Part shown: one piece after another, positions 6,313-57,569 of the stretch
Layout: the number at the start of each line of letters is the position of its first letter
Numbering within the stretch: the stretch's first letter is position 1
IMG/VR virus record: IMGVR_UViG_3300029309_000005
Location: 1 to 64,000 of that record
DNA: 64,000 nucleotides
DNA from: a virus
Direction: 5' to 3' (one strand)
The notes under the pieces: model-generated
Told to the model about the DNA's origin: nothing
The model's input: only the letters and a program-made list of their open reading frames with translations
The model's database searches: none
Program-made: the position numbers and the translations under genes

Positions 6313-7938
6313 TCACATCTGAGGCGGCCCAGGCTGAGTAGGATTCATTCTTATAACATCATCAATCCTCAAAACCATTATCGCTGCTTCAGTGGCAGAA
6401 GTAAGTGCTTGCTTATGTAATTCAACTGGTTCAATTACGCCCTGTATTAGCGCATCATGCGGGAATGGCTTCTCAGTTTCGACATCAACAAAGTATCTTA
6501 TGTTTCCATCTTTGCTGTTCTTTACTAAAGCAAGCATTTCATCCACAGGATCTAAACCAGCGTTTTCAGCAATCGCTTTTGGTATAGTTAGAAGTGCTTC
6601 TGCAAAAGCATCAACAGCCATCTGAACTCTACCCTCTGGCCTACAATGTTCCTTCAATTGGTTATACAGGTATGCTTGAGTCGAACCGCCACCAAATGTT
6701 AGGTTAGTATTGCGTGACATCAACCAGGCTACGCCCACAGCATCTTCTAAGGCTCTTTCAACTTCTTCTGCTACATGATTGGTAGCACCACAAGCGATAA
6801 TTGTCCTAATGTTTGAGTCCTTCTTTGTCACCATGATTAGATCATGTTCATACTTATCAGATACATAGAAAGCGCAATGGCCTATGTTATCAAAATCAAT
6901 AGGATTTGATAAACTCGAAACTACGCTTGCACCAGATATTTGACAAACTGAATCTAAGTCAGATTTTTTTACTGAGTGAACTGCGGTAATACCATATTTT
7001 TTCAGGTAGTGCAAAGCCAAATCATCAATCTTTCTTTGAGTTAGAACTACATTAGCACCTGATTGCTTAATTAGTTCAACCATATCTCTAATTGAATCTT
7101 CTTCTTGGCGTAAGAATTCCTCAACTTGAGATGGATTTGTAATTTGAACCTGTGCTTCCATGTTAGTTTTCTTAGGCTCAACAGAGCAATCCAGCAACAA
7201 TACCTTAGCCTCTGGAACTGTCCTTGTCATGGTTTGGCTTGCCAAATCTCTTTCGATTACAATACCTGGAATTTGCATAGTATCTTCCTCTTTTGTGCCA
7301 CTTGCTGAAACAAATCGAATATCCTCTATCGCATTAGCGTTTATTACGACATCTTTGGCTAAGTCTGCTAACTTGTGTTGAATACCTTCAGCAGATTTAC
7401 CAGTTAGCGATGAGAACGCAGCCAAATACGCTAACTTCTCTTTTAACTCTTGACTCAATGGTAACAACTTGTAGTGATTCTGGAACTCCTTCAGATTGAG
7501 AGCAGACAATTGATCTAACTCATCTAAACAAAACCTCTTTGCTATCCTGAAACCTTTGCAGATAGTCGTGGCATGAATAGAATTGTCTAGTAATCTCTCG
7601 GCTTCTTCGAGTAAAGCACCAGACAATACTACTGCACTCGTAGTGCCATCATAACACCGGCTTTCTTGAGTTTTTGCCACTTCAACAATCATTTTGGCTG
7701 CTGGATGTTCAATACCTATCTCTCGCAATATCGAAACTCCATCATTGGTAATTAGAGCATTTCCAGCAGGATCAATCAACATCTTATCCATGCCCAGTGG
7801 CCCTAGAGTCGTTTTGATTGCATTTCCTACCGCTTTTGCCGCTTGGATATTACTTCTTTGGGCTGCTGAACCGTTTGTTTGCTCAGTTCCTTTCTGCATG
7901 ATATATACTGGCTGTTGACCGTTACCTGCTGGCTGCAT
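6313..7938 (-). CDS. ths: group II chaperonin (thermosome subunit)
   Basis: [87 protein letters not shown]. Confidence 0.97.
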
Positions 7939-17187: not shown

Positions 17188-17636
17188 TGTTTATTCCTCC
17201 TTGCGTTTTCTTTTCCAATTCTATGTCCTGTTCTAAATCCAGATTGAAGCATCCCAATTGCTGCTTCCTTCAATTCGTTAATGTCATCTATGTAGTCAAG
17301 CAACTCAATGCTAGACTCAAAGATTGCATCTATGTCATCTGTGGTTACACCGTCTTTGAATACATGGTTCTCTTGACATACTTCGCACCATGCCAACGGG
17401 TCTGCTGCTATCGAATTGATGTGGGCTAGTGTTTCACAATTCACAACGAAACCATGTGACGCATGCCCCTCATAGCCGTAGCAGGTGGCTTGATACATCC
17501 CTGGCTCATTCAATCCATAATCAACAACAATCACCGTTCCAGTTTGGCGGTTCTTGAACTCTCTAATCTCTCTAACTTCTGGCATCTTTTCCTCAACTCT
17601 CATCGTTACGGCAATACTCCCCGTAGTCGTAACCAC
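17184..17636 (-). CDS. hypothetical protein (first gene of leftward arm; start uncertain)
   Basis: 150 aa ORF downstream of the conserved promoter 13-mer. Confidence 0.6.
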   Translation of the reverse strand: MVTTTGSIAVTMRVEEKMPEVREIREFKNRQTGTVIVVDYGLNEPGMYQATCYGYEGHASHGFVVNCETLAHINSIAADPLAWCEVCQENHVFKDGVTTDDIDAIFESSIELLDYIDDINELKEAAIGMLQSGFRTGHRIGKENARRNKQ

Positions 17637-17644
17637 ACTATGCA

Positions 17645-17657
17645 GGGTATATCAACA
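17645..17657 (-). promoter_or_regulatory. putative early promoter TGTTGATATACCC
   Basis: Identical to 5663-5675; heads the leftward gene arm. Confidence 0.55.
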
Positions 17658-17659
17658 CT

Positions 17660-18480
17660 ACGGACAACATAGACACTAAAGACACATTTCGAGACAGGGG
17701 TGTTCCATATCAAAAAGAGCATACTGCAAGCATCTAACAGCACATCTTAGGACACAATAGACACTTTCGACAGTTCCCTCAATATATGCAGACAAAAGAC
17801 AGGGATTTCATAGGGGAAATATGCAGTAAATCTAGGTGAAAATATACTGTTGTTTGTCATGTATTTTGTGTCTTTTTTATTGGCATCATGTCTAATATGT
17901 CTATCGTGTCTAATGTGGACTCAAAGATCGCTACTTTCAACCAGTATCAATACAACCGAAAACGACCTACTGCGAACCCCCTGCCGCTTGGGTGGGTGTT
18001 CGTTTTGTTTTGTTGAAATATGAGACAAATTGTGTATTTTGGTGTCCTACCAGGCTCTCAGTGGGTCGAAATTGGGTGTCGGACTGGGTTTTAGGCTAGG
18101 ATTTGGCCCGTTTTGAGCCAGTTTGTGGGCATGAAACTAGGTGTAAGACTGAGTGGCCTACCCAGTGTGGATATATCGCCACAGAACCCAGTTTATCGCC
18201 ACAAAATGGCCGGTTTTATCGCTACAAACACCCAGTTTGCGAGCCAGATCGAACGCACTGAGCCGAGCAGCCAGTCTGACGACTGGCTGGTGTGCCATAA
18301 ACGGGTGACTGAGAGCCTGGAACGCCCAGTATTGCACCCAGTAACTGCTAAATAGGCTCGCAGTAGCCTTTTTTTTGCCTAAAAGGGGTAGATTTGGGCA
18401 TATTTTTTTTTTTTTTTTGGCTGCCGCCATAAGTGACATACGCTACACGGAAAAAAATTTGAGAAAAAGTTGTTAGGAAT
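17660..18480. other. divergent non-coding region with short direct and inverted repeats (candidate origin / pac / genome end)
   Basis: Coding strand switches here. AGACA(C) repeats at 17663-17773 face TGTCT copies at 17868-17915; CCCAGT and TATCGCYACA repeats at 18161-18342; T16 run at 18403-18418. Confidence 0.55.
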
Positions 18481-18508
18481 GTCAATTAGTTGAGATGGAT
18501 TTATTTTA

Positions 18509-20038
18509 ATGTGTTGCATCGAGTGTAATATGCCTGAGTTTTCACCGTATGAAGATGGTGATAACATCATGCGTTTGCGTAGGTTTGCTCAAAGTGAGCC
18601 AATGAAAGTCAGAACTTCAGAAAATGACGATGATTTAACGCAAAGAGATCGCACAGAGAGTTGTTGTGATAAGTTCAAAGCGGATTTGGCTGCTGCTACA
18701 CTGACTGAGCGCATAAGTATGCTTCTCGATATGAGTTTGGGCGCAGTAAAGAGGGGTGGCAGAGGTGGCCCTGGCGAAGATGTGTATATGGGCGACTTTG
18801 GAAACTTTATGGATTGCAGAGAATTAGTTGAAGCGATAAATAATGTATTGACATATGAGACAGATGACCCTGCTGACCAAGATTCGCTAGACCAGTTAAG
18901 ACAAATAGTATTGGAATATGAGAGTTGTAAAGGTGTGCAGTTTGGAAACTTCACGCACGATATGATGCAGTTAAGTGAAAATACGTTTGAAGCGGCTTGG
19001 GATTCTATCTTTAAGATGCCGACAGATTTTGATCCGTTCCCTGATGTATCTCCAGAACAGGCTAGGGCTATTTTTGCACAGATGATGACAACCAGTGCAT
19101 TAGATAATGTAGATACGATGCCCGAAGTCAAAGTTGGTGATGCTGGTGGCGACAAGTGTTGTGCAGAGGCAAAGTCGAAGTGGATTACATACCTAACGGA
19201 ACAGTTTGATGCTGAGAACGAAATGATGGGAGATAAACAATCACACCGAGAACTTAGCGATTCAATTATAGCAAAATATGAAGCGATGGATTGTGATGAA
19301 TTCAAGATGTTTTTAGAAAATATAGCCGGAGTTAATAACAATCATCCGGTATATAGAGCGCATAACGAAAGAAAGGGATTGGGAAGGACTACCGAATCTT
19401 ATGAGGCTGCACGTATAATGGAGTCTTGGAACGCATGTGAGTTTGGCGCAGGTGAAAATGCAGAAGATATGGGGTTCTATGCAAGTGATGATTCTTTTGA
19501 AGCGACTTGGGATTCAATAAGTAAAGCCCCATTGGATATGGATTCAATCAAGCCGGTTGCTTATGTTCCAAATAATGATGATGAAAAGCGGTTTAGCATT
19601 GCAGATTTTATACACCCTAAGACTGGCAAACGCTATCCTATGGTTATGACAACGCCTTCATATTCACATGATTTTAATGTGGATATAGAATATCCACCGG
19701 ATGAACAAACTCAATTCGATGAAATGTTAGGTCACAAAATTGGTAGTAGCAATGTAAGTTATCACTTAGATCATGAACCTGATGATTTGCCATTTGCTAT
19801 GAATTATCCGATTGAAGGTGCAACCGTTAATATAAGCCCTTACATTGCAGATAATTTCAGAAACTTGGGAATGGCACAAGCGATATATGATTTGATAGAT
19901 GCTTTAGGATATAGGGTAAAGGCCAGTGACACTAGATCGGATGAAGGTGATGCGTTTTGGTCTGCTAATCAAGGCCGCACAGTTGATTCGTATGAGATGC
20001 CATTTTGGAGAAACAAAGAAACGAGGGAAAACTTATGA
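18509..20038 (+). CDS. polyprotein-like ORF: two Cys-containing helical repeats plus C-terminal GNAT-like domain, separated by two internal leader motifs
   Basis: Repeats CC...MDC.E......C. Internal SENTFEAAWDSIFK|MP and SDDSFEATWDSISK|AP. C-terminal YIADNFRNLGMAQAIYD...SDEGDAFW is GNAT motif A/B-like. Start uncertain. Confidence 0.65.
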   Translation: MCCIECNMPEFSPYEDGDNIMRLRRFAQSEPMKVRTSENDDDLTQRDRTESCCDKFKADLAAATLTERISMLLDMSLGAVKRGGRGGPGEDVYMGDFGNFMDCRELVEAINNVLTYETDDPADQDSLDQLRQIVLEYESCKGVQFGNFTHDMMQLSENTFEAAWDSIFKMPTDFDPFPDVSPEQARAIFAQMMTTSALDNVDTMPEVKVGDAGGDKCCAEAKSKWITYLTEQFDAENEMMGDKQSHRELSDSIIAKYEAMDCDEFKMFLENIAGVNNNHPVYRAHNERKGLGRTTESYEAARIMESWNACEFGAGENAEDMGFYASDDSFEATWDSISKAPLDMDSIKPVAYVPNNDDEKRFSIADFIHPKTGKRYPMVMTTPSYSHDFNVDIEYPPDEQTQFDEMLGHKIGSSNVSYHLDHEPDDLPFAMNYPIEGATVNISPYIADNFRNLGMAQAIYDLIDALGYRVKASDTRSDEGDAFWSANQGRTVDSYEMPFWRNKETRENL

Positions 20039-20142
20039 CGAGATGTAAATTATTAGACGGATGGCTTGATATTCAATCGAAAAGGATTGATGAAAAAGAA
20101 AAGCAGACCAAGAGGTGTTCTGTCACTGGTGAGAAAAAATGA
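20035..20142 (+). CDS. 35-aa small protein
   Basis: Not in track: MTRCKLLDGWLDIQSKRIDEKEKQTKRCSVTGEKK. ATGA-overlaps both neighbours exactly. Confidence 0.55.
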   Translation: MTRCKLLDGWLDIQSKRIDEKEKQTKRCSVTGEKK

Positions 20143-20621
20143 ATACTTTTGATACCGCTTGGGGGTTGCTCAAAGAGTTCCGTTTTGAAGGTGGCTTCCC
20201 AGGTATCTTATTAGCAGGTGCTTACAATCCAAAAACCGATACACCTTATGTCAATCTCGCTAGTCATGTTTCTGATTTCAAAAGACCTGCGGATTGGAAT
20301 CGAGATGGCGTTTCATATCCAGTGTTTCGAGATGATGAAGAATTAATGGAGAGGGTTCTGCGTATTCTTGCACATGAAAACATGCACCAAGCCCTTCATC
20401 CACCTTATACTGATGATTTATGGAATGAGGTTTCAATGTTTGGATTGAGCAGCAAAGATGTTGATGAGGCAGAGAGGAATCGACTTCAAGCCAAGATTGA
20501 TAATGACTGGGAAAGATTTCAAGAATATGGTGCGTGGAGTGCAACACCAGGAATTGATGAAGATGAGAAGTGGCGAATGCTACGACTCTATGGAATTTAT
20601 CCGAAGGAGGGAGAGCCATGA
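20139..20621 (+). CDS. leader-tagged zincin-like metalloprotease
   Basis: MNTFDTAWGLLK|; YVNL...RILAHENMHQAL...QEYGA (HExxH plus downstream E). Confidence 0.7.
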   Translation: MNTFDTAWGLLKEFRFEGGFPGILLAGAYNPKTDTPYVNLASHVSDFKRPADWNRDGVSYPVFRDDEELMERVLRILAHENMHQALHPPYTDDLWNEVSMFGLSSKDVDEAERNRLQAKIDNDWERFQEYGAWSATPGIDEDEKWRMLRLYGIYPKEGEP

Positions 20622-21205
20622 GTTCTTTTAATGTCGCTTGGGATTCCATTACAAAAATGCCTATTGTTCCTGGTTCAGTTTCAGAAGGAGTGCCAGATCC
20701 TAGAGCCAGATACGCAAAAAGTGGTTACAAGCAATATACGGCTTCATTTGAAGATCCTGTAACTGGTGAAATACTACCAATGTTGGCAAGACATGGCCCA
20801 AGTGACCTTCAGGTTACTATCAAAGACCCTAAAGAAGAAGTTATACTCTCGACTCTTGACCTTGACAGCCAATCCGATAACGCCTACCGAATAACATATG
20901 ATGATCAAGGTAACAAAAACCGTATGGAAGATTGGGAAATTTTGCCGCCCTACTATTCGGCAGGTTATGTAGAAACCCAAGATGACCGTCAAAGAAGGGG
21001 TTATGCTACGGCATTATATGACTTAGCAGCATACTTGTTAAGTCGAGGCCATCCAAACTACGAAGAACAATGGGGAGGCCAGCCACCGCTATCTATCGTT
21101 CCATCTGGCGACCAAGAAGAAGATGGTTTTTTGTTTTGGGAAAACGCATATAAGACTGGTAAAGTAACGGATGACGATACTTGGCGAGTGAGGGATGACT
21201 TATGA
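20618..21205 (+). CDS. leader-tagged GNAT-like acetyltransferase
   Basis: Start corrected to ATG 20618 (ATGA overlap): MSSFNVAWDSITK|MP; VETQDDRQRRGYATALYD...QEEDGFLFW. Confidence 0.7.
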   Translation: MSSFNVAWDSITKMPIVPGSVSEGVPDPRARYAKSGYKQYTASFEDPVTGEILPMLARHGPSDLQVTIKDPKEEVILSTLDLDSQSDNAYRITYDDQGNKNRMEDWEILPPYYSAGYVETQDDRQRRGYATALYDLAAYLLSRGHPNYEEQWGGQPPLSIVPSGDQEEDGFLFWENAYKTGKVTDDDTWRVRDDL

Positions 21206-22071
21206 TTAGGATTTTTGAGGTCGGCCCACGTGATGGTTTGCAGAATCTCCCCCATGTTCCATCCACAGAAGATAAAATCAAACTAATCCAATTACTGCGT
21301 GATGCAGGTCTTACTCGAATAGAAATTGCTTCATTCGTGCATCCAAAAGCAGTTCCAAACATGGCTGACGCTGAAGAAGTCTGCAAAGCGTTTGATAATA
21401 AAACTGGATTATCTGTGCTGGTTCCAAATAAGCGTGGTCTTGATCGAGCGATAGAATCTGGTATGGGCAACTTCAACATATTCTTTTCACCATCTGATAC
21501 TTTCAATGTAGCAAACTACGGTTTGAAGTTAGAACAGATATTAGAAGGATATGAAACGACTCTGCAAAATGTGTCTCCAGATATTGTTAGAGTGTATATA
21601 TCAGAGGCATTTGAAGCAAGTCAGGAGGAACTTACATTAGCGATACAACACGGTTTAAGGTTTGGAAATAGAATTGTGCTATGTGATACTAAAGGCACAG
21701 CCAAACCATTTGATATAGCAACTGGTATAGGAATCGCACAAGACTTCACACATGAAATATCATTACACCTTCATCATGGTCGCTACTTGATGAATAATGT
21801 GGCAACTGGATATGCAAACGGTGTGCGAGAGTTTGATTCGAGTATTGGCGGTCTTGGCGGTTGTCCGTTTGTTGAGAACTCTGGTGCTAATCTTGCTACT
21901 GAAGAATTAGTGAGATGGTGTAATAAGAGAGGAATAGATTGTGGAGTTAAACTATCTGATTTGAAGGCGGCACGTAAGTTAGCACATAAAATCAAAAATC
22001 CAACGCTTCGTATAGCAATAAAGAATAAGGTTAAGTCCACTAGGGATAGAATACGGGCGGGGTTATCATGA
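21202..22071 (+). CDS. hmgL: hydroxymethylglutaryl-CoA lyase (DRE-TIM)
   Basis: IFEVGPRDGLQN, IEIASFVHPKAVP.MAD, LVPNKRG, LCDT.G, HLHH, FDSSIGGLGGCPF, GANLATEEL. Confidence 0.9.
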   Translation: MIRIFEVGPRDGLQNLPHVPSTEDKIKLIQLLRDAGLTRIEIASFVHPKAVPNMADAEEVCKAFDNKTGLSVLVPNKRGLDRAIESGMGNFNIFFSPSDTFNVANYGLKLEQILEGYETTLQNVSPDIVRVYISEAFEASQEELTLAIQHGLRFGNRIVLCDTKGTAKPFDIATGIGIAQDFTHEISLHLHHGRYLMNNVATGYANGVREFDSSIGGLGGCPFVENSGANLATEELVRWCNKRGIDCGVKLSDLKAARKLAHKIKNPTLRIAIKNKVKSTRDRIRAGLS

Positions 22072-22754
22072 CGGCTTTTGACACCACTTGGGATTTGCTC
22101 AAGGATTTCTATTTTTCACCCAAGGACACGAAAATGAATGTCGTAAGACGTGATGACGGAAGCGTTCTTTCGTTTGCTGATCGGTTGGGAGAAATGCAGC
22201 CACCTATGATTGATGCCGATTATATGAGAAGGATTACAAGAGGATCTGATTTCAAACCTATTCCCTCGCCTTTTGTTGAGGGCAAGCACCAACCAGTTAT
22301 TTTGCCGAGAAATGTTGTGATGGAACATGACCCAGAAGAAGGAGGGTTTGCGCCAAGGCGAATTGATTCAATGCGAATGAGGGAAATGTATCGAGGCCAT
22401 GAAGGACTACCACACTATGTCGGAGTCAATTTATCAGCAATGCGTCAAGGCGAGGATGATTTAGATACGATATTAGAAACTTTGGCTCATGAACACGCTC
22501 ATGCAGCCATTGATGATGAGTTGATGCAGGTTTTGTATGATAGAATGGTGGAGGCTCAAAATTATGATGACGCTGAAAAAGCCTATCATCAGCACGTAGG
22601 GGCGCATGAAATCGGGGCATATAATCTCCAAAATCCAGGCGGAGAGGATGCTGCACGATCAGCCCGATTTAGCACAATACTTCATCCCAATTACAAATTA
22701 GCAAATCGGGGCAAGAGTCCACCGATGGCATACATTAGAGATAATCTAAAATAA
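22068..22754 (+). CDS. leader-tagged zincin-like metalloprotease (paralog of 20139 ORF)
   Basis: MTAFDTTWDLLK|; VGVNLS...ETLAHEHAHAAI...HEIGAY. Confidence 0.7.
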   Translation: MTAFDTTWDLLKDFYFSPKDTKMNVVRRDDGSVLSFADRLGEMQPPMIDADYMRRITRGSDFKPIPSPFVEGKHQPVILPRNVVMEHDPEEGGFAPRRIDSMRMREMYRGHEGLPHYVGVNLSAMRQGEDDLDTILETLAHEHAHAAIDDELMQVLYDRMVEAQNYDDAEKAYHQHVGAHEIGAYNLQNPGGEDAARSARFSTILHPNYKLANRGKSPPMAYIRDNLK

Positions 22755-22868
22755 TTTTTTTTGTGTAGTTTCAAAACTGGCTTAAAATAATGCCACATAG
22801 CCAAAAAGTGGCCTAATTTTTTTTTTCGATGGAATGGCTTTATTTCAGATAGCCACCTGCACATTAAT

Positions 22869-23438
22869 ATGGCATCGACATTTAACTCCGCTTGGAGTGT
22901 GATTAAGATGCCAGCCAAAGGATGGGAATGCCCTGAATGTAAGATGCCAATGATGGTCGAGGACACCAAAGGAAATCATCTTACTTGTATGAATTGTGGT
23001 GCAGTTGCTTTACAGCCTATTCGCAGAAGGAGAACAAGAGGAACGGGTGAAGCCTATGCTAGAACAAACCAAGCGTATGATGATTACAAACAATCCCAAC
23101 TTGACAATCGACCTAATGAGATAAAAGCATTAGAAGATGTGGGTGTAAATGTAGTCGATAAGCCAAAGAGATTGACTGAATATAATCCCGAACACATGTT
23201 TAATCCACTAGCAATGGCACTAAACGAGTTAGGTTTTGAATCGGTTCAAGAATTACTGCAAGAGTATGTAAAGTTGAAAGCCGTAACTAAAAACCAAGAT
23301 TTGCGAGATTTAGGACTATCTGACGAAGCAGATGAACTCGATCAGCAATGGATAGAATATATTTCAAACGCACATAATCAATTTGGTAGCCCATTTATGT
23401 CAGCAAAACGGGGGAGGCGATGGGATGACCCTGTTTGA
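22869..23438 (+). CDS. leader-tagged Zn-ribbon protein
   Basis: MASTFNSAWSVIK|MP; CPEC...LTCMNCG (TFIIB-like ribbon spacing). TTTATTT box ~30 nt upstream. Confidence 0.65.
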   Translation: MASTFNSAWSVIKMPAKGWECPECKMPMMVEDTKGNHLTCMNCGAVALQPIRRRRTRGTGEAYARTNQAYDDYKQSQLDNRPNEIKALEDVGVNVVDKPKRLTEYNPEHMFNPLAMALNELGFESVQELLQEYVKLKAVTKNQDLRDLGLSDEADELDQQWIEYISNAHNQFGSPFMSAKRGRRWDDPV

Positions 23439-24189
23439 TATTGCCTGGGCTTTGCTCAAAGAAGAAGGACAACGCAGGGATGTAAAGCCCCACGCATTAT
23501 CAGGACTTGCTGATCGTAAAACTATGTCTTTTGGAGAGGGTATTGATGATGCTAGGGCATTTTATCAACTACCATTAAGCACAATTACGAGTTACGGGAG
23601 TGACGCTAAACAAAGAATAGGGCCGAACCCTTCTAAACCCAATAATGAAAACGACTGGCAACAGGTCGGCCATATTCCTTTTATTGAGGGTTATGAGGCT
23701 GAAGGATATGGTGCTTATGAATCTGAAAGTAATGCTTTGAAAGACCTAATGAATGCTGCTGTGCCGCCCTCATTTGCTCAAGATGGTTTCTATCATCCTT
23801 ACTTACACGCTTTGGATTATGACACAAACGAATGGGTTACTCATTTAGGCGAAGATGCACCGCCCACTGGCGATTATGAGCGAATCTTCAGAGCAAAGGT
23901 AATTCAAGATGGTGGGCCACTTAGCCCTCATAATCCCATTTATCCAGATTGGGTTTGGACTAAAATTGAGAGAGAGCAAGATGAGGATGGCAAACATCAT
24001 TTGACATTATACACCGCAAAATACCCTTACAGTTTAGATGAATTATATGAAAATTTACGAGAAAACCCTGAACCTTACTTTGAGTCCGGTGCGATACAAG
24101 TTGATGACAACATACAAACAGGAGAGCCAATGAGTATCGCTTGGCAGTTGTTGAAGATGCGTATTCCTAATTTGCCAGAGGGGATTTAG
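23425..24189 (+). CDS. leader-tagged hypothetical protein with second leader copy near C-terminus
   Basis: Start corrected to ATG 23425 after GGAGG: MTLFDIAWALLK|; C-terminal TGEPMSIAWQLLK|MRIPNLPEGI. Confidence 0.65.
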   Translation: MTLFDIAWALLKEEGQRRDVKPHALSGLADRKTMSFGEGIDDARAFYQLPLSTITSYGSDAKQRIGPNPSKPNNENDWQQVGHIPFIEGYEAEGYGAYESESNALKDLMNAAVPPSFAQDGFYHPYLHALDYDTNEWVTHLGEDAPPTGDYERIFRAKVIQDGGPLSPHNPIYPDWVWTKIEREQDEDGKHHLTLYTAKYPYSLDELYENLRENPEPYFESGAIQVDDNIQTGEPMSIAWQLLKMRIPNLPEGI

Positions 24190-24381
24190 ATGATGTATCT
24201 TTGCCCAATGTGTCAATCCACTGAATTTGATACTGACACTATCATTATGCAAGGTAAGTGGAGTCGTCTAATCAATTACTCGAATAAGAAATATGATGCT
24301 GTTAGTTGTAAAAATTGTGGCTATACCATGCTTTTCAAACAGGATGCTAAGTTCAGCATAATGGAGGCGTTGATAGGATGA
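24190..24381 (+). CDS. small Zn-ribbon nucleic-acid-binding protein (DUF2082-like)
   Basis: CPMCQSTEFDTDTI...SRLINYSNKKYDAVSCKNCGYTMLF; no leader. Confidence 0.7.
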   Translation: MMYLCPMCQSTEFDTDTIIMQGKWSRLINYSNKKYDAVSCKNCGYTMLFKQDAKFSIMEALIG

Positions 24382-24806
24382 CAGCCTTCGACACCGCTTG
24401 GGGCTTGCTCAAAATGCCGTTTTTTGAAGATTTACCTCAAGTAACACAAGACGACATTACATACCTTATGCTGGAACGCAACCCACACATAGACGAACAA
24501 TACAAAAGGATTCACCCAAATTACCTCAAAAGGGATATGTTCGGAATGTTTTTGCCCGAAATCGAGCAGATGGAGATAAGTCGCTTGACGAATCAAAGAC
24601 CTGTTGAAAACACAAATGCAAAAACCATTGAACGCTACATCGAAATGCTCAATCAAGGAAGCCCTTCACCTCCGATCATTGTTTCGGGAAATCAATTTGT
24701 TGATGGAGGACACCGTTTGCATTCTCATAAACAGGTTGGATTGAAGAAGATACCAGCCATAAACATTGGAGATTTGTTGGAAAAACCATTGGGGGTTGCT
24801 GAATGA
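24378..24806 (+). CDS. leader-tagged ParB/Sulfiredoxin-like protein
   Basis: MTAFDTAWGLLK|MP; PPIIV...FVDGGHRL...GLKKIPA. Confidence 0.75.
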   Translation: MTAFDTAWGLLKMPFFEDLPQVTQDDITYLMLERNPHIDEQYKRIHPNYLKRDMFGMFLPEIEQMEISRLTNQRPVENTNAKTIERYIEMLNQGSPSPPIIVSGNQFVDGGHRLHSHKQVGLKKIPAINIGDLLEKPLGVAE

Positions 24807-25255
24807 CCGCCTTCGACACCGCTTGGGATTTGATGAAAGCCCCTTTTCATGGAACTACAACTGGCGTTCTTAAAAAAATAAGAAAACGAGGACTTCAACC
24901 AAAAAGGCCAGACGCTTTCACCAGCCCGTCTGTGTTTTTTTCACAAAGCCCTGAACAGGCGATAGCATTTGCCAATATCCGTTCCGACTTGACGAGAGGT
25001 AAGTATGGTGGCGATCCCGTTCTCCTTCATTTTCCTCTTTCAGCCGTTAAGAATCCGAATCAAGGTCTATTCCGACCAACACCCGAAGATGGAGATAATC
25101 AATGGACTAAACACCCCATTCCTGCAAGTGCAATAACAGAATACTACGGGCCGCCAAAACCCAAAGACAAAGAAAAATGGGATGAATGGCAAGACGCTAT
25201 CAATTCATGGAAAAAAGAAATGATGGAACGGTATGAACAGGGGGAGTTTGATTGA
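24803..25255 (+). CDS. leader-tagged ADP-ribosyltransferase-like (Tpt1/KptA-type HGT) protein
   Basis: MTAFDTAWDLMK|APFHGTT...IRKRGLQP...VFFSQSPEQAIAFA...PVLLHF...IPASAI. Confidence 0.7.
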   Translation: MTAFDTAWDLMKAPFHGTTTGVLKKIRKRGLQPKRPDAFTSPSVFFSQSPEQAIAFANIRSDLTRGKYGGDPVLLHFPLSAVKNPNQGLFRPTPEDGDNQWTKHPIPASAITEYYGPPKPKDKEKWDEWQDAINSWKKEMMERYEQGEFD

Positions 25256-25518
25256 CTGTCTTTGACATCGCTTGGGATTTAATGAAATCTATACCTATGG
25301 ATATTATGAATGACCCTTTGGTGTATGTTGCCCCCGATAACAGCCACCGTTTCGTTAGACAAGACCGTGATTTTCGTTCTTGGTTGTATGAAAATGGCTA
25401 TCCAGCCGATGATGATTTCCTTCAATTAGATTTCATGCAACAGATACAAGTTTTGTTTCATTACAGGGTTCAGCAAGGTGCTTCAAAGGAACAGTCGTTT
25501 ATGGAGGACAATGTATGA
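25252..25518 (+). CDS. leader-tagged hypothetical protein
   Basis: TTG start; MTVFDIAWDLMK|S. Confidence 0.65.
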   Translation: MTVFDIAWDLMKSIPMDIMNDPLVYVAPDNSHRFVRQDRDFRSWLYENGYPADDDFLQLDFMQQIQVLFHYRVQQGASKEQSFMEDNV

Positions 25519-26144
25519 CCGCCTTCGATCAGGCTTGGGGCTTGCTCAAAGCACCTTATCACGGAACTACGTCAGATCGTGTTGAAAGCATAATGCGTGA
25601 GGGATTGAAGCCGAGCGATTGGAAGTCAGGGAATCGTTTTGTTGGTGGCAAGGGTCAATATGAAGAAGGAAAGCCTGTGGTTTTTGCTACATCGTTTCCA
25701 AAATTGGCGTTGAAATATGCAAAGATGGGGGCAAATAGAGCCTCAAGGCGGAGGGCGCAAGATGAAGGCAGAATTACAGGGAACTGGACTACCGCAACAT
25801 CGGACAAAACCTTTGACTCAAAATCGGGTCGCCCTGTGATTATTGAGATTGATCCGTCTTTTCCGCTTAGGCACAACAAAGAATGGAATGCCTACAAATC
25901 AAATGTCGTCATTCCGCCTCAATTTTTGCGACTTGCTTTTGAAAGCGAGATAGCCCCAACTGAACCAATCACTTATGGTCGCATGGAGGCTATCGTTGAT
26001 GGAGAATATGAGCGCATGGATCCTCAACTGCCAAGAAGTGAAGTTAAACGAAGGTTGGCCTCATACGATGACGATCCAGATGAAACGGGATATTCGCCAG
26101 AATTGAGTCTTGAAGAAATTGAAAGGCGGGTGATGCGTGAATGA
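25515..26144 (+). CDS. leader-tagged ADP-ribosyltransferase-like (Tpt1/KptA-type HGT) protein
   Basis: MTAFDQAWGLLK|APYHGTT...SIMREGLKP...VFATSFPKLALKYA...PVIIEID...IPPQFL. Confidence 0.72.
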   Translation: MTAFDQAWGLLKAPYHGTTSDRVESIMREGLKPSDWKSGNRFVGGKGQYEEGKPVVFATSFPKLALKYAKMGANRASRRRAQDEGRITGNWTTATSDKTFDSKSGRPVIIEIDPSFPLRHNKEWNAYKSNVVIPPQFLRLAFESEIAPTEPITYGRMEAIVDGEYERMDPQLPRSEVKRRLASYDDDPDETGYSPELSLEEIERRVMRE

Positions 26145-26479
26145 CCGCCTTCGACACCGCTTGGTCTTTGTTGAAAGAAGGCTTGCCGTATTACGGGAAT
26201 TGTGTTAATGGTTTTGACGATGTGGAAGTTTTGCATTATATCATTGATAATTCAATTGAAACAACCTATGATGATTTAGCAAACAATGTATCGGCAAGTG
26301 ATTTAGCCGCATTAGAACAGGGGTTGGGATATGGCGAACATTTGCATATTGCAGACGATTATGCGGCTTCCTTTCATAAATTACCTTCTTTACCCCTCTT
26401 TTACATAGACCAAAGCGGGATTGAAAGGGTGTTTGCTGAACCAAGCACAATTGAACGGATAGAGAGGTTGGTTGAATGA
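26141..26479 (+). CDS. leader-tagged hypothetical acidic protein
   Basis: MTAFDTAWSLLK|E. Confidence 0.68.
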   Translation: MTAFDTAWSLLKEGLPYYGNCVNGFDDVEVLHYIIDNSIETTYDDLANNVSASDLAALEQGLGYGEHLHIADDYAASFHKLPSLPLFYIDQSGIERVFAEPSTIERIERLVE

Positions 26480-26895
26480 ACGCCTTCGACATCGCTTGGG
26501 CTATTGTAAAAATGCAAACAGGCCATAGACGCTTTTTTTCAAAAAAGGAGATTCAAGAAATTGCCGAGATGAACAGGCATTTGGCTTTGATGATTGATGA
26601 TGGTTCACTTGACCCAGATCCAAGCGTGAATTATCCCTCTCAATGCAGGGAGTGTTTTAGTGAAATCAATAACATTGTTGAGGGTATTCCAAATCATTGT
26701 AGTCGTTGTATTCATCCCTTTGTGGATAAGCGAATAAATGATGCGATGGGAATAGCAGGTCTATTTGGAGATGGTAAGCCATTTGATTTACAAGACGCAT
26801 TGCGGCAAGACAAAAATGAAATCAATCCTTTTGATGGTTCGGCAAGTGAAGTTGATTTTAGAATGTATGAAGATAGGATGCGTGGTTTAGAATGA
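26476..26895 (+). CDS. leader-tagged CxxC protein
   Basis: MNAFDIAWAIVK|M; CREC...CSRC. Confidence 0.68.
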   Translation: MNAFDIAWAIVKMQTGHRRFFSKKEIQEIAEMNRHLALMIDDGSLDPDPSVNYPSQCRECFSEINNIVEGIPNHCSRCIHPFVDKRINDAMGIAGLFGDGKPFDLQDALRQDKNEINPFDGSASEVDFRMYEDRMRGLE

Positions 26896-27626
26896 CCGCC
26901 TTCGACACCGCTTGGCAATTGATGAAAGCACCCATTGATGTTTATTCGGATCGTGGCCGAATAAGGGAGATTACTGATGATGAGATGTTGTATAGCGGTG
27001 GGGATTTTAGAGATGACCCACGCTATTATTCAAATGACCTTGATGTTGCTTTGCATTATGCTTTGTATGGTTCAGCCATTCCCTACGCTGATTTTAGAGG
27101 GCGAAGAAATACAGAAGGAAAATCCTCTCCACCAATGCGAAGAACAATACCGAGCATCAGAATCATTGACCCAAGCGATTTTGAAGAATACGAATACGCA
27201 ATGCAAGAAGATCCATATAGCCCTGGTATTGGTGTTATGGATGATGAGAATATGGGTGAACGTTTGTCGCATGATCGAGTTATTGAATTGCTTCAAGAAT
27301 ACATTGATGAAAGACGATATGAGGGGGTTATGGGCGGAACAACAGGCGAATTATTCACCCCTGAACAAAGAGGGCAACACGCAAAAGACGCTCTTAATCG
27401 TTTGAGGGCTTACAGGGATAATGAATCACTTGAGAGGTTTAACCCCAAACCACCAACCTATGAGATGGATGCCGATGTGTTTAGAACTGCCGAATACGAT
27501 GATTTCATGGAGGCACTTTCTTATGACGATAGCATGGTTGAAATGCTTGGCGAATGGGAGGATTTAGAGGATTGGCAACGAAAAGCAGCCAAAGAAGCGG
27601 GATATTCGGAGGATGATTGGATATGA
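26892..27626 (+). CDS. leader-tagged protein, possibly a divergent ART fold
   Basis: MTAFDTAWQLMK|AP; LYSGG...YYSNDLDVALHYA resembles ART strands 1-2 with the His replaced. Confidence 0.6.
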   Translation: MTAFDTAWQLMKAPIDVYSDRGRIREITDDEMLYSGGDFRDDPRYYSNDLDVALHYALYGSAIPYADFRGRRNTEGKSSPPMRRTIPSIRIIDPSDFEEYEYAMQEDPYSPGIGVMDDENMGERLSHDRVIELLQEYIDERRYEGVMGGTTGELFTPEQRGQHAKDALNRLRAYRDNESLERFNPKPPTYEMDADVFRTAEYDDFMEALSYDDSMVEMLGEWEDLEDWQRKAAKEAGYSEDDWI

Positions 27627-28369
27627 CCGCCTTCGACACCGCTTGGAATCTTGTCAAAGAATATACTCCAAATTGGAGAGATGTTGCTAGTAATTTGCCA
27701 GAACTTTCTATGAGTGAGCGTCAAAAGTTGTTAAGCGAGGATTCTATAATGGATGATATGATGGGGCAAGGTGGCTCATTAAGCACCTTTATTCATCCAA
27801 GTGATAGAAGATTTGTTGTTAAATTACCCCACATGCAACACTCTAAAGACAATTTAGCAAGCAGGTTTGGTGATTATGATGGAGATGGTTACTACATGAC
27901 TGAATTGTTAGAAAGTCTTGGTTTCCCCGTAGTATCTGAATTTAATGTAGATGATGAGTATATTATTCAGCCAATTCTCGAAACTCATGCTTATGGTGGG
28001 TTTGGTGAACTAGGGCGGCCAACTTTAGGAATTGCAGATATTCCAATGAATCATATATTTGGCGATAGAGTAAGTGCTAATTGGGGTCGTGATCAGACAG
28101 GGAATTGGCGTTTGTTTGATACTGATATGGGTATGCCTCCACCGTATGATTGGTGGCCTTCTTCATCAGCGAATCCAGGTCAAGCCTATCAAGAAAATCT
28201 TGACAAGTTCAACATTCAATTGCCAGCCTCTAGTGTTCTCGATATTTTGGATGAAATACCAAACGACATGGATGGTTTGAGGGCTGTAATGGAATCCATT
28301 GAACCATATTCGGACAATCCGCAATATGTAACGGTTGATAAAAAACCTGTGTGGAGAACAGGGTATTGA
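27623..28369 (+). CDS. leader-tagged protein-kinase-like (HipA/PI3K-type) protein
   Basis: Start at ATG 27623: MTAFDTAWNLVK|E; MGQGG (Gly loop), FVVKLP, GDRVSANWG (DRxxxN), RLFDTD. Confidence 0.6.
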   Translation: MTAFDTAWNLVKEYTPNWRDVASNLPELSMSERQKLLSEDSIMDDMMGQGGSLSTFIHPSDRRFVVKLPHMQHSKDNLASRFGDYDGDGYYMTELLESLGFPVVSEFNVDDEYIIQPILETHAYGGFGELGRPTLGIADIPMNHIFGDRVSANWGRDQTGNWRLFDTDMGMPPPYDWWPSSSANPGQAYQENLDKFNIQLPASSVLDILDEIPNDMDGLRAVMESIEPYSDNPQYVTVDKKPVWRTGY

Positions 28370-28384
28370 CTACTGGATGAAGAT

Positions 28385-28485
28385 AGGTGGCGAAGCAAAC
28401 AAGGTATTTATCGAATGCCCAAATATTCGATATGTTTTGTGAAAGTTAAAGCCTAAAATTGACAGGAGGTTGTTTGCTCGCCAGT
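28385..28485 (-). ncRNA. putative structured small RNA
   Basis: 28388-28402 TGGCGAAGCAAACAA pairs with 28470-28483 TTGTTTGCTCGCCA (one bulge); inner 8-bp hairpin 28409-28432; minus-strand TTTAATAA box at 28505-28512. Confidence 0.45.
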
Positions 28486-28572
28486 TATTGCTTTATTCCT
28501 TATCTTATTAAAGACTCTCCAACCACTTGTTAGTTTAGATAAGTTCTTATCTGGTAACTGTTTCCAACAATC

Positions 28573-29886
28573 ATGAGCGAGGCTTTATTCAATGAAGCAT
28601 TTTCGCTTATGCTGGCAAAAATGTTACCTTCTTATGATATAGAAGATATGAGGGCTAATTTTGAGTCAAGATTTCCTAGATACCCTATGAGAGATGATGT
28701 AGGGCTAATTGCTGAATATGCTGGAATGGGCGGTTTTGATGAAGGATTCGCAAGTATGGGCATACCAACCATTGCATCAGTAGATGCTTGGAATGCTGCT
28801 AATCAAGTAAGAGCAGCAAATCAAGAAGGAGAGGTTATTCAAGGGTATATTGGAACTGAACAGGGGCAACTTCATCCTGACGATTTAGTAGAAAGATATG
28901 CAGATCTATCTCAAGGCAGACCTATTCATTACCACGCCTCCCCTCCATGTCAAGCCTTTACACTGGCTCAAAGGAGAACAGGGCCAGCAGGAAAAACAGA
29001 GGAAGAAATTTATGAAAGCAAATTGGCTGCCTTTCCTATGATTGGAAATGCCCTTTACACGGCTGAACAGATGATAAAGCATCCCGACATTAATCTTAAT
29101 TCATGGTCACTTGAAGAAGCACCAGCCGTTGCACAGTTTATCAAAGAAAATCCGCATTTGTTAGATAAATATGTTAGCAAACCATTCCAACATCGGGTCA
29201 TGAATCTTTTGAAAAATCAACCCAAATTGGATGCAATTGATTTTGGAGTTCCAACAACAAGAGGTAGAACATTCATAGGCGAAGGATTTACTGCTGAACC
29301 AACACATTACAAGTATGGCACAAAACCAATAGCGGGCAGAGAAGAAGGCCCGTCAATACTTGATTTTTTGCCACATTTAGCAGATGAAGAACGGGCAAAC
29401 CAAGCAAACAAATTGGCATTTCTAAATCAGATAGTCTCAGAAGGTAAAATTAGTCCAGAAGTTAGAGATTATCTTATGAGTCAAGGTTTTGTTTCGCAAT
29501 CAGGAGGCATTAATCCAGGCAAAGGTAAAGGAAAGGGCTGGATGAATGTAAAAGCAAACCATCCTAGTCAAGAGGGAGGCCCTGGAACTGCATTCATACA
29601 TAGAAAGCCTTTAGATTCAACATTCACAGGCATAACGCATAATCTACCATCTCATATGTATAATCGTTATTTGACACCGGAAGAAGTGATGATGGTTCAA
29701 GGATTTAGACCGGATTATGATATTTCATCTGCTTTGTCAGCACCTACTTACAAAGCATCATCTGGAAAACCAATTAAAGCAATAAATCAGATGATTGGCA
29801 ATGTAGTTTCACCTGCTGTTTCAAGAGCAATAGGGCGTGGCGCATTTGGTTCAAACGCACAAAAGACACTTTTTGACCAGTTTTGA
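28573..29886 (+). CDS. C5-cytosine DNA methyltransferase with variant leader and C-terminal PIP-box-like motif
   Basis: Motif I YAGMGG, IV SPPCQAF, VI-like LEEAP, VIII PTTRGRTF, IX RYLTPEEVMMVQGF, X QMIGNVV; N-term LFNEAFSLMLAK|M; C-term QKTLFDQF. Confidence 0.88.
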   Translation: MSEALFNEAFSLMLAKMLPSYDIEDMRANFESRFPRYPMRDDVGLIAEYAGMGGFDEGFASMGIPTIASVDAWNAANQVRAANQEGEVIQGYIGTEQGQLHPDDLVERYADLSQGRPIHYHASPPCQAFTLAQRRTGPAGKTEEEIYESKLAAFPMIGNALYTAEQMIKHPDINLNSWSLEEAPAVAQFIKENPHLLDKYVSKPFQHRVMNLLKNQPKLDAIDFGVPTTRGRTFIGEGFTAEPTHYKYGTKPIAGREEGPSILDFLPHLADEERANQANKLAFLNQIVSEGKISPEVRDYLMSQGFVSQSGGINPGKGKGKGWMNVKANHPSQEGGPGTAFIHRKPLDSTFTGITHNLPSHMYNRYLTPEEVMMVQGFRPDYDISSALSAPTYKASSGKPIKAINQMIGNVVSPAVSRAIGRGAFGSNAQKTLFDQF

Positions 29887-29924
29887 AGGGTCAAATTGAT
29901 ATTTGAAATAAGTATGCCGGTTAT

Positions 29925-30224
29925 ATGGCTGGTAGCGAATGCTTTGAACAAGTATGGTCAGCCATAGTAAAATCTATGACAGATCCTAATCGTGAAAGAG
30001 AGTTAGAAGATGTTATTGATGAGAACATGGCTCAATACGAAAAGACTAAAAAAACCCGTAAAGACATGCGACAAAAACCGATTAATCCTACTGAAAATAA
30101 AACCATGCAAAGAATGATTGCGAGAGCAAAGGGGAATGAGCCTCAGAGAAAACAATCTCCAAGAACACCTGTTAAATTAAGTGAAACTCTTGAGAGGTTG
30201 CATAACAAAGTGCGTAAGGATTGA
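29925..30224 (+). CDS. leader-tagged basic hypothetical protein
   Basis: MAGSECFEQVWSAIVK|S. Confidence 0.65.
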   Translation: MAGSECFEQVWSAIVKSMTDPNRERELEDVIDENMAQYEKTKKTRKDMRQKPINPTENKTMQRMIARAKGNEPQRKQSPRTPVKLSETLERLHNKVRKD

Positions 30225-30233
30225 GGTAATGAT

Positions 30234-31520
30234 ATGACTGAGGATATTGTTACAAATCTAATAAAGACCCTTGAAATAAGGGATGACTTTAGCATTCAGA
30301 AGATGCCGCATCCCTCTGCTGGAAAGTTCGGAAGAAGGAGGGCTTTACCTACTGCATTTAGGCTTCAAGGTGTAAAAAATAATCCAATGTATTCAAACAT
30401 CATGGCTGCTTTAAGAGATACCCTTGGAGATCGTGAAATGATTGAGACATTTGGGGGGGGTGGAGGTTTGTCATTAGGATTTAAGCCGTCAAGAGCCATC
30501 ATCAATGACATAAATCCAGATATTGGCAATTTAATGCGTAGAATCATCCGTGAACCGTTTCAAATAAATCCTAGTGATTACAATGTTGCAGAAGGGGAAT
30601 CAATTATAATGCCACATCCTACTTTGGGGGATATTGATATTGGAACAATGACTCCTGAATTGATGAGTCAATTTGGTGAAGGAAAAGAAGCATTTGTGCC
30701 AGCACATTATTACAATCTCCGTAATCAATATAACGCACTTAGAGAAAAAGCCGCAAATCAAACTGCAACACAGGAAGATTATGATAGAATGGCCGAATTA
30801 TTTTACATGTTACAACTGACTGGATTCAATAGTTTAGTTCGTTATGGTCGAACTAAGGAATTACCATCACTTGAAAACCCTTATTCAACACCTCCAGGGC
30901 TTTCACGTGACAAAAAATATTTGCCAGAAAACCCACAGATGGCAGGGGCATTTTTCGATAGATTGATGGAGGCAGGGCTTTATAATCCTGAAAAGAACAG
31001 ATACAAAGGCCGAATACAACCTGGTGGCAATACTTTCAGACCTACACCCATTAGAGGCGGTATAGGGCCGCATGATTTTTCGCCTTGGCATGAGGCAATG
31101 AAAGATTGGGATTGGAGAACAGGTGACGCATTCCAATTTTATGACGACATCAAAGACCAAATGAAAGCCGATAAAAACCTCATTACTTTCGATCCGCCCT
31201 ACTTTGGAGAAGAAGGCGCACACGGATTCTTTAACGAGCAAGAGCAAGATAAATTGCTTCAACAAATTATTGACGCAAAGGAACGTGGTGTGCCAACAGT
31301 TGTTTTTAATTCAATGAGTCCTTCAATTGTAAATCCGTTACGAGATGCAGGTTTTGACATTCGTGAATTAAATCGTCAAGATATGTCAGGTTCAAAGGCT
31401 TCAACAAGAGGAACAGTCGGTGAACTTATGGCTATGGCAAATGTTCCTCAAGATTCTTTTAATGAAGCATTAAGACGAATGCAGCAAGGTAATAATAGAA
31501 ATCAACAAAGGCTGTTCTAA
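30234..31520 (+). CDS. Dam/D12-class N6-adenine DNA methyltransferase
   Basis: IETFGGGGG, IINDINPD, GFNSLVRY, FDPPYF, SGSKASTRGTVGELM. Confidence 0.88.
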   Translation: MTEDIVTNLIKTLEIRDDFSIQKMPHPSAGKFGRRRALPTAFRLQGVKNNPMYSNIMAALRDTLGDREMIETFGGGGGLSLGFKPSRAIINDINPDIGNLMRRIIREPFQINPSDYNVAEGESIIMPHPTLGDIDIGTMTPELMSQFGEGKEAFVPAHYYNLRNQYNALREKAANQTATQEDYDRMAELFYMLQLTGFNSLVRYGRTKELPSLENPYSTPPGLSRDKKYLPENPQMAGAFFDRLMEAGLYNPEKNRYKGRIQPGGNTFRPTPIRGGIGPHDFSPWHEAMKDWDWRTGDAFQFYDDIKDQMKADKNLITFDPPYFGEEGAHGFFNEQEQDKLLQQIIDAKERGVPTVVFNSMSPSIVNPLRDAGFDIRELNRQDMSGSKASTRGTVGELMAMANVPQDSFNEALRRMQQGNNRNQQRLF

Positions 31521-36500: not shown

Positions 36501-36937
36501 GAACAGTTCATCAGTTGATGCTCAAAGATTTGCCTACTCATCATAGTATTTTATCTAATAACAAAGCAAAAGATTTGTGGAGTATAGATGATTTGTTAGC
36601 ATACACTAATTCTGTTGATGTAGTTGTAAAGCGTTGGGCTGAAGCGGTTGAAGAACATTTAGAATATCCCGAAAGCATAGTTGCAGACATACTAGGTTCG
36701 CTAATAGTTACAAGACTTTTGATTAGTGATTTGAAGATATTAAAACATAAACCAAATGCTGAGTGTATATCTTTGTTAGATGGCACACAGATAATTACTG
36801 ACTTAAAACAAAAAATGTTGCCAATGTCAAAATCTTATGCACGTGTTCCTTCGTTAGCACAATGGTATATGACTTTAGCAAGTGAAATTGATACAGCGTA
36901 TCGCTCAATTCGTAGGAGGTTAAAAGATGGTAGTTAG
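36497..36937 (+). CDS. hypothetical protein
   Basis: 146 aa, overlaps neighbours. Confidence 0.6.
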   Translation: MRTVHQLMLKDLPTHHSILSNNKAKDLWSIDDLLAYTNSVDVVVKRWAEAVEEHLEYPESIVADILGSLIVTRLLISDLKILKHKPNAECISLLDGTQIITDLKQKMLPMSKSYARVPSLAQWYMTLASEIDTAYRSIRRRLKDGS

Positions 36938-54119: not shown

Positions 54120-54120
54120 A

Positions 54121-57558: not shown

Positions 57559-57569
57559 GGGGAAACGAT

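Follow-up and report, generated by a model that had tools for sequence, protein, structure and literature searches.

Thirteen adjacent genes at positions 20139–28369 of the virus record IMGVR_UViG_3300029309_000005 (IMG/VR) encode proteins with a common N-terminus of 12 residues, M-T-A-F-[DE]-x-A-W-x-h-h-K (h, hydrophobic), ending in Lys, after which the sequences diverge. This peptide, hereafter the tag, may be a capsid-targeting signal that is cut after the Lys by the prohead protease of the virus, so that the proteins behind it (the cargo) would be packaged into the virion. Judging from the comparisons presented below, we give this interpretation about an even chance. The stretch of DNA that was analysed, hereafter the window, comprises the first 64 kb (64,000 nucleotides) of a single contig of 96,627 bp. 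The contig is a complete genome, and its ends overlap by ~100 bp. The chaperonin, the S78 prohead protease and the halovirus-like capsid protein encoded in it match the gene signature published for magroviruses, the viruses of marine group II archaea (Poseidoniales) (PMC5434244), and on this basis the genome is assigned to a magrovirus-type, marine archaeal tailed virus.

Tagged genes in the window and in the whole genome

A sequence-only reading of the window had described the leader on thirteen genes, with variants at 28573, 29925 and 57367, and all of these were found as listed. Gene starts were confirmed at 20139, 20618, 22068, 22869, 23425, 24378, 24803, 25252, 25515, 26141, 26476, 26892 and 27623; all 13 carry F-[DN]-x-[AT]-W-x-h-h-K no more than four residues from the start codon. 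The tag of gene 20618 is a variant longer by one residue, FNVAWDSITK. The degenerate variants read ALFNEAFSLMLAK (28573), CFEQVWSAIVK (29925) and VFQTSFQLMK (57367). The regular expression F[DNE]x[ATS]Wx-h-h-(x)K gave 15 matches in the window, each of them on the plus strand, whereas 50 shuffled sequences contained no match. Outside the window, N-terminal tags occur at genome positions 80664, 81205, 81414 and 81863 on the plus strand, directly after the tail-fibre genes, and two weaker variants are present at 86900 and 86245 on the minus strand. The genome thus has about 20 tagged genes, or about one gene in six.

The tag is also found inside proteins. The open reading frame (ORF) 18509–20038 (plus strand, 509 aa) has no N-terminal tag and contains two internal copies, FEAAWDSIFK↓MP at 18986 and FEATWDSISK↓AP at 19496 (here and below, the arrow marks the end of the tag or, in the capsid and protease proteins, the predicted cut). 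Another copy lies outside the window at 83440, within the multi-domain ORF 82246–83685. The internal copies form a subtype of their own, which is one residue longer (F-E-x-A-W-D-S-I-x-K), follows a stretch rich in [SDE], stands between the domains of larger ORFs and usually has no in-frame Met just before it; besides these three positions, the subtype was seen at several related loci. Such copies may represent polyprotein junctions. Multi-domain ORFs with internal tags are few (18509–20038 and 82246–83685 in this genome), and most tagged genes are single-domain. In addition, ORF 36927–38477 contains the internal sequence YAWDSVLK↓AKRR.

The C-terminus of the tagged protein encoded at 23425–24189 reads SIAWQLLKMRIPNLPEGI up to the stop codon (24136–24189), i.e., half a tag and the first residues of a cargo. 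The matching cargo is intact in a related locus (L113), where it is found as FDTAWDILK↓FRIPNISERS. The segment 24136–24189 has the appearance of a tagged cassette that decayed and became fused to the gene upstream of it.

Tag and cargo in related viruses and cellular genomes

A degenerate DNA pattern detected 9–16 strict copies of the tag per genome in five near-complete relatives. The strict matches were located on the strand of the capsid gene in 5/5 of these genomes, and the reversed pattern, used as a control, gave zero matches. A stricter pattern (MTAFDTAW) had 54 clustered matches in 28 IMG/VR stretches belonging to ~22 contigs. In 596 Gb of bacterial and archaeal genomes, the same pattern was found as five scattered singletons, which is about the chance number estimated from the degeneracy of the pattern, and none of the five continues as a tag. 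The genomes of the host Poseidoniales were covered by the strict DNA pattern.

Tagged ORFs were counted if the cargo had at least 40 residues, and families were delineated by all-against-all BLASTP (E < 1e-4). The 205 distinct tagged ORFs collected from ~25 contigs formed 88 families; 53 of these were singletons, whereas the largest comprise 26, 22 and 14 paralogous members. The earlier statement that the proteins diverge completely after the leader was therefore right as to their diversity and overstated as to the absence of kinship, whereas the expectation that the leader would be restricted to viruses and would precede variable cargo was borne out. The two arrays are the least conserved parts of the genome: only 1–6% of the stretch between 22 and 28 kb aligns to a relative whose structural block aligns over 90–100%. 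A second magrovirus lineage, with a capsid protein 63% identical, possesses a shortened tag core, M-[ND]-P-(M)-x-x-A-W-x-h-L-K.

Constraint on the peptide and on the DNA

The logo of 181 canonical copies (in %) is M71 T64 A79 F D75/E20 x A86 W x L64/I18/V12 L41/V30/M17 K, where the 100% values of F, W and K simply reflect the search pattern, in which these residues were required. The Lys is followed by A (27%), M (27%), E (10%) or S (8%), together 72% of the copies, and then by P in 39%. Positions 3 and 6 of the tag vary freely, and the hydrophobic positions show only conservative changes. Synonymous codons vary too (TTT/TTC, GAT/GAC, GCT/GCA/GCG, six Leu codons, AAA/AAG). In the AlphaFold model of the protein encoded at 25515, tag residues 2–9 form a helix, followed from residue 12 on by the first strand of the domain. 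One face of the predicted helix is formed by F, W and L, and an acidic residue is conserved, in agreement with the amphipathic helix proposed by the sequence-only reading. The free x positions, the conservative hydrophobic ones, the synonymous variation, the core kept in the second lineage and the internal subtype argue for selection on an amphipathic helix. Judged by these substitution patterns, the tag is selected as a peptide, with constraint at both the peptide and the DNA level. Class III (prepilin-type), Sec and Tat signals were held unlikely, since no hydrophobic stretch follows the tag.

The codon usage of the tag differs strongly from that of the genome: ACC accounts for 77–88% vs. 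10%, GCC for 52% vs. 11%, GAC for 61% vs. 21% and CTC for 39% vs. 4%. Codons ending in C are favoured inside the tag (20139–27660 and related loci) although the genome is AT-rich. An identical 24-mer, ATGACCGCCTTCGACACCGCTTGG, is common to four genes. RNA structure at the start codons, with the ribosome site pairing with codons 2–3, was considered as a cause of the bias and rejected (−15.7 vs. −14.8 kcal/mol in shuffles, with inconsistent folds). The simplest reading of the codon bias is that the tag has been spread and homogenised by recombination. Recombinational spread fits because each cargo is flanked by two tags, the arrays are hypervariable and a decayed remnant is present at 24136–24189.

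Predicted cleavage sites of the protease and the capsid protein

The gene for the prohead protease (52722–54119, plus strand) encodes a Peptidase_S78 domain (PF04586, E 2.8e-10) with a scaffold-like tail, and the candidate self-cuts of the protein are FLLK22↓S and TILK178↓MEGD. The major capsid protein (54112–55269, plus strand) is ~33% identical to those of the haloarchaeal siphoviruses HVTV-1, HCTV-1 and HCTV-5; by this protein, HVTV-1 is the closest cultured relative. Its predicted maturation cut is DLLK38↓ADNP (codons 54223–54228). In the alignment with the haloviruses, K38-A39-D40-N41 are invariant, and the upstream parts are unrelated and of different length (38 vs. ~105 residues). Conservation that starts after K38, together with unrelated extensions, is the expected picture of a removed N-terminal extension. 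The S78 protease of phage HK97 cuts the capsid protein gp5 at K103/S104 (PMC10275583). Eighty close relatives keep the capsid site as DLLK↓[AS]D, and the second magrovirus lineage has ILK↓ADAP or LLK↓ADSP.

The junction between the protease domain and the scaffold-like tail is TILK↓MEGD here and VVSK↓ADGD in the haloviruses. By lineage, the capsid and junction sites are LLK↓AD and ILK↓ME in magroviruses and (M/V)SK↓AD and VSK↓AD in haloviruses. In the Methanofastidiosa virus vir519 (L253:2014-5643), Asn replaces Lys at both sites (capsid protein, IQN↓AD; junction, VLN↓SD). Both sites change together across three lineages, and the predicted sites therefore co-vary. For vir519, the sequences suggest that the specificity of the protease shifted together with its substrates. 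The predicted cut rule of magroviruses has h-h-K before the cut and a small or acidic residue after it, which is also the pattern at the end of the tag. The scaffold-like tail contains five h-h-K sites in 465 residues, compared with 0.0036 per residue across the structural block.

The scaffold-protease (52722–54119) ends in a conserved Trp-containing amphipathic helix, DLDGWRAAEALAQRALRGE here and MSWDDVHRLAGKAL in the second lineage. The helix is probably the part which binds the capsid protein. The likeness of this helix to the tag is loose, and the register differs.

Cargo proteins

The cargo has a median length of 168 aa and is acidic, with a median isoelectric point (pI) of 4.9. When all tagged proteins were scanned with Pfam and PHROGs, hardly any match was obtained. 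The thirteen genes of the array are all located on the plus strand.

Cargo family 0 is represented by the genes 24803–25255 (MTAFDTAWDLMK↓APFHGT) and 25515–26144 (MTAFDQAWGLLK↓APYHGT). The start of the family is K↓[MA]P-Y/F-H-G-T, and in both genes the cargo begins right after the Lys, as had been noticed before. The profile of the family, compared with PDB sequences, matched Tpt1/KptA (RNA 2'-phosphotransferase) and DarT over the HGT strand with E 0.003. The AlphaFold2 model (pLDDT 75) gave Foldseek matches almost all of which belong to the ADP-ribosyltransferase (ART) superfamily, the best with E 6e-4 and a TM of only ~0.3. They include Tpt1/KptA, Arr, diphtheria-, pertussis- and cholera-type toxins and PARPs, plus two RES-type toxins. 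The profile and the model support an ART fold with the H-G-T/S motif on the first strand and putative catalysis. When leaderless homologues of the ART cargo were sought by a word-indexed search, only nine close relatives were returned, which is uninformative.

Family 3 is encoded by the gene 27623–28369 (MTAFDTAWNLVK↓EYTPNWR). The matches of its model (pLDDT 65) are almost all protein kinases (RIO, NleH, OspG, HopBF1, PRPK) with E 0.01–0.2, and the invariant residues fit the kinase Lys, Glu, D-x4-N and DFG-like Asp. The family 3 profile had only chance-level matches to retinol-binding protein among PDB sequences. Taken together, the model weakly suggests a kinase-like fold. Family 2 is encoded by the gene 26892–27626 (MTAFDTAWQLMK↓APIDVYSD), for which ART-PolyVal is the only lead; its profile had no credible match among PDB sequences. 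Kinase-PolyVal and ART-PolyVal are leads from the ESM Atlas. These families were not confirmed by hmmscan, and a member-by-member scan of families 2 and 3 to E 1 found no PolyVal family. The cargo list as a whole resembles the domain set of polyvalent proteins.

The genes 20139–20621 (MNTFDTAWGLLK↓EFRF, zincin-like) and 22068–22754 (MTAFDTTWDLLK↓DFYF) encode an HExxH motif, which is invariant together with a downstream Glu, also in divergent relatives. Family 1 follows the 10-residue variant of the tag in the gene 20618–21205 (MSSFNVAWDSITK↓MPIVPGS) and forms the last domain of ORF 18509–20038; its match to acetyltransferases (GNAT) is very weak (E 0.18). The product of 22869–23438 (MASTFNSAWSVIK↓MPAKGWECPECK) has a TFIIB-type Zn ribbon just below the Pfam cut-off, and that of 24378–24806 (MTAFDTAWGLLK↓MP) a weak ParB-like match (phrog_8071, E 3e-4). 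The gene 26476–26895 (MNAFDIAWAIVK↓MQTGHRRF) belongs to family 6, and 26141–26479 (MTAFDTAWSLLK↓EG) is a further tagged gene. The gene 23425–24189 (MTLFDIAWALLK↓EE) is the one with the remnant-like C-terminus, and the small gene 25252–25518 (TVFDIAWDLMK↓S) starts with TTG.

Downstream of the array, the gene 28573–29886 (plus strand) encodes a C5 DNA methyltransferase, the Pfam match of which is solid and the N-terminus of which resembles a degenerate tag (ALFNEAFSLMLAK↓M). It is followed by a small gene with a variant tag (29925–30224, plus strand, CFEQVWSAIVK↓S) and, at 30234, by an untagged N6 methyltransferase gene, also with a solid match. Among the cargo names proposed by the sequence-only reading, the ART (by profile and structure), the HExxH proteins with their Glu and the C5 methyltransferase stand. 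The GNAT and ParB assignments are weak, the kinase-like one is weak with invariant catalytic residues, and the Zn ribbon stays below the cut-off.

One gene with a variant tag is located in the head module (57367–57558, plus strand) and encodes a Zn-finger protein of 63 aa (VFQTSFQLMK↓FGDCPVC). Its orthologue in a relative (G001) has the canonical tag FEASWELMK, and in another relative (G013) a tagged gene (FEKAWLLLK) with a different cargo start is found at a similar place. ORF 57367–57558 overlaps the start of a gene for a 568-aa protein (57447–59153) by ~110 nt in another frame.

Possible functions of the tag

The tag may act as a portable amphipathic helix that directs unrelated viral proteins into the assembling procapsid, where the S78 (HK97-type) prohead protease would remove it after the invariant Lys. 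The cargo would then be fast-changing host-modifying enzymes (ART-fold, kinase-like, zincin-like, ParB-like and probably methyltransferases), which would travel in the virion and enter the cell together with the DNA. Capsid targeting is favoured because the end of the tag matches the predicted capsid and junction sites, and the S78 family is shared with HK97. It is also favoured because the tag is restricted to viruses, the arrays are hypervariable and the cargo is similar to virion-delivered polyvalent proteins, and because the strict tags share the strand of the capsid gene and one tagged gene lies within the head module. The earlier proposal of a capsid-targeting leader cut after Lys is thus consistent with the comparative data (maturation sites, S78 protease, virus restriction), while procapsid binding, cleavage, packaging and injection are steps that we infer from sequence.

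Several points weigh against capsid targeting. The cut sites of the capsid protein and the protease are themselves alignment predictions, and the motif of h-h-K with a small or acidic residue is short, so the match to the tag is of limited weight. Directly beside the main array, at ~18 kb, lies the divergent intergenic region, a place just as suitable for early genes. Unlike the basic internal proteins of phage T4, the cargo is acidic, and the modelled ART domain begins two residues past the Lys, with little linker. Protein-level selection is insufficient to account for the codon bias of the tag, which points to an added constraint at the DNA or RNA level or to recombinational spread. Finally, a search of HVTV-1 for a tag array found none, despite the same type of capsid protein and protease. 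The tag would therefore be a magrovirus innovation and not a property of this head type. A more extended version of the proposal, in which magroviruses use one peptide and an HK97-type protease to load a swappable arsenal of enzymes from dozens of families for delivery into Poseidoniales, and in which the tag doubles as a recombination joint, falls somewhat short of an even chance.

The alternative that survives best, though we regard it as unlikely, is that the tag is a linear docking motif (an F-x-x-x-W-x-x-L helix) for a host or viral hub, with no packaging and with cleavage optional. The viral thermosome, a replication/transcription factory or a host complex could be considered as the hub. 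Groove-binding motifs typically have such a helix, with a face of F, W and L and an acidic residue; the proteins behind the tag are acidic and resemble enzymes, and the genes of the main array, next to the divergent region, are possible early genes of host takeover. All magroviruses, moreover, encode their own chaperonin (PMC5434244). Docking, however, leaves unexplained the invariant terminal Lys and the sharp start of the domain after it, the likeness to the predicted maturation sites of the capsid protein and the protease-scaffold, the internal copies at domain junctions and the tagged gene in the head module, and no candidate hub was identified.

The identical 24-mer in four genes and the strong codon bias would also be expected if the tag were mainly a cassette boundary at the DNA level (24–36 nt and a Shine-Dalgarno-like site) serving recombination, with the peptide being secondary. 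The variability of the arrays, which exceeds that of any other part of the genome, and the decayed remnant at 24136 agree with such a boundary, as does the Met that directly follows the Lys in many cargoes, suggestive of a tag added in front of an existing start codon. However, synonymous sites vary, and amino-acid changes occur only at x positions or are conservative at hydrophobic ones. Moreover, the second lineage keeps the peptide core with other flanking residues, and the internal copies have neither a start codon nor a ribosome site. In view of this peptide-level evidence, recombination is likely a by-product or an add-on and not the sole function, and we consider the boundary as the main role improbable.

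Least probable of all, and very improbable, is a membrane-binding role, in which the tag would place the enzymes at the host membrane or the assembly site. In its favour, the tag is a short amphipathic helix at the N-terminus with many Phe, Trp and Leu residues, as in known membrane-targeting sequences. However, the net charge of the tag is about zero with a near-invariant Asp/Glu, whereas known membrane-targeting helices are cationic, the internal copies and the exact Lys boundary are left unexplained, and the targets of the cargoes (ART, kinase-like, ParB-like, methyltransferase) are soluble.

Comparison with known systems

In phage T4, a capsid-targeting sequence (CTS) of ~10 residues is carried by the divergent internal proteins IPI-III and by Alt, and is removed by the prohead protease (Mullaney & Black 1996; reviewed in PMC9026906). 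In both systems, an N-terminal peptide of ~10–12 residues is found on unrelated, fast-evolving proteins, an ADP-ribosyltransferase is among the cargo and the genes are located in hyperplastic regions. In T4, the C-terminal end of the peptide is the motif cut by the viral prohead protease, and the same is predicted here. The peptides themselves are different (FDxAWxLLK here and MKTYQEFIAE in T4), and the cut would follow Lys here, whereas it follows Glu in T4 (L/I-x-E). The present virus has an S78/HK97-type protease and an archaeal host, in contrast to the gp21-type protease of T4. In addition, far more genes are tagged here (~20 per genome, with at least 88 cargo families in ~25 contigs), in a system known from sequence alone. 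Because the protease is a Peptidase_S78 and the tag ends in Lys, the tag system is an analogue of the T4 CTS and not a member of that type.

Polyvalent proteins of phages and conjugative elements contain 2–15 effector domains per polypeptide, and phages package and deliver them with the DNA; DarB and DdrB of phage P1 are examples, and archaea are reported to be poor in such proteins (Iyer et al. 2017, PMC5512222). The domains are similar to those tentatively assigned to the tagged cargo (ART, kinase-like, zincin, ParB-like, GNAT and DNA methylases, with ParB and GNAT weak here), and so is the proposed role, i.e., delivery with the DNA and action at the start of infection. The difference is that the domains are mostly encoded here by separate single-domain genes, each with its own tag. 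In HVTV-1, gp115 (L154:18622-22560) comprises Zeta_toxin and ADPrib_exo_Tox domains and is encoded between a MuF-like gene and the prohead protease. At the same place of the HCTV-5 genome, gene 114 (L254) is annotated as zeta toxin and ParB nuclease. By its domains and gene position, HVTV-1 gp115 is a giant polyvalent protein in the head module of an archaeal virus. BLASTP revealed no similarity between gp115 and the 1148-aa head-module protein. The tag system may be regarded as a 'disaggregated' counterpart of the giant polyvalent head proteins of related haloviruses.

HK97 has a protease of the same family, a cut after Lys and an N-terminal extension of the capsid protein that is removed, as predicted here, but loading of a set of tagged cargo proteins is not known from this phage. 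The HK97 protease is said to be targeted into the capsid through its own C-terminal tail. Encapsulins also use a short peptide to dock diverse cargo enzymes inside a shell of the HK97 fold, as proposed here. Their peptides, however, are usually C-terminal and uncleaved and show no sequence resemblance to the tag, and encapsulins have no portal, DNA or protease.

The magrovirus papers that were read and the survey of archaeal Caudoviricetes contain no mention of a shared N-terminal motif, and a literature search for a capsid-targeting signal of archaeal viruses found no published description. If capsid targeting is true, the tag would be, as far as found, the first capsid-targeting or cargo-loading signal known for an archaeal virus and for HK97/S78-type maturation, and the loading of unrelated proteins via a shared cleavable tag would have arisen more than once. 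It would also make it possible to list, from sequence only, candidate injected proteins of abundant uncultured ocean viruses: magroviruses are among the most abundant viruses of the surface ocean, and the candidates make up about one gene in six, almost all annotated as hypothetical. ADP-ribosylation, phosphorylation, proteolysis and DNA methylation would then be a route to the takeover or disarming of Poseidoniales. Such a system would represent an archaeal, modular alternative to bacterial polyvalent proteins, and it would explain the apparent scarcity of polyvalent proteins in archaeal viruses, in which these domains may be used one at a time. As a compact peptide, the tag is also a candidate means of packaging foreign proteins into shells of the HK97 type, and it could serve for protein delivery to archaea. 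The co-variation of the two predicted protease sites in three lineages, the codon bias, the fold checks and the link to the polyvalent-protein repertoire and HVTV-1 gp115 are new here.

Genome layout and other genes

The genes are clustered by orientation. The minus strand of positions 1–17.6 kb carries genes including those for replication functions, and from 18.5 kb to ~84 kb nearly all genes, with all morphogenesis genes among them, are oriented in the plus direction. The stretch 17636–18509, directly upstream of the array, is 870 bp long and gene-poor, contains A-rich runs and coincides with the switch of the coding strand and of the GC skew; it is a candidate origin or divergent promoter region. 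The group II chaperonin (thermosome) gene, a known magrovirus hallmark, is located at 6313–7938 (Cpn60_TCP1, E 1e-131). The window also contains the genes for a UvrD-type helicase, the large terminase subunit and the portal protein (45243–47054). Within the array, the untagged gene 21202–22071 (plus strand) encodes an HMG-CoA-lyase-like protein (PF00682, E 1.4e-25). The gene is intact, start/stop-coupled to both neighbours, and is possibly an auxiliary metabolic gene.

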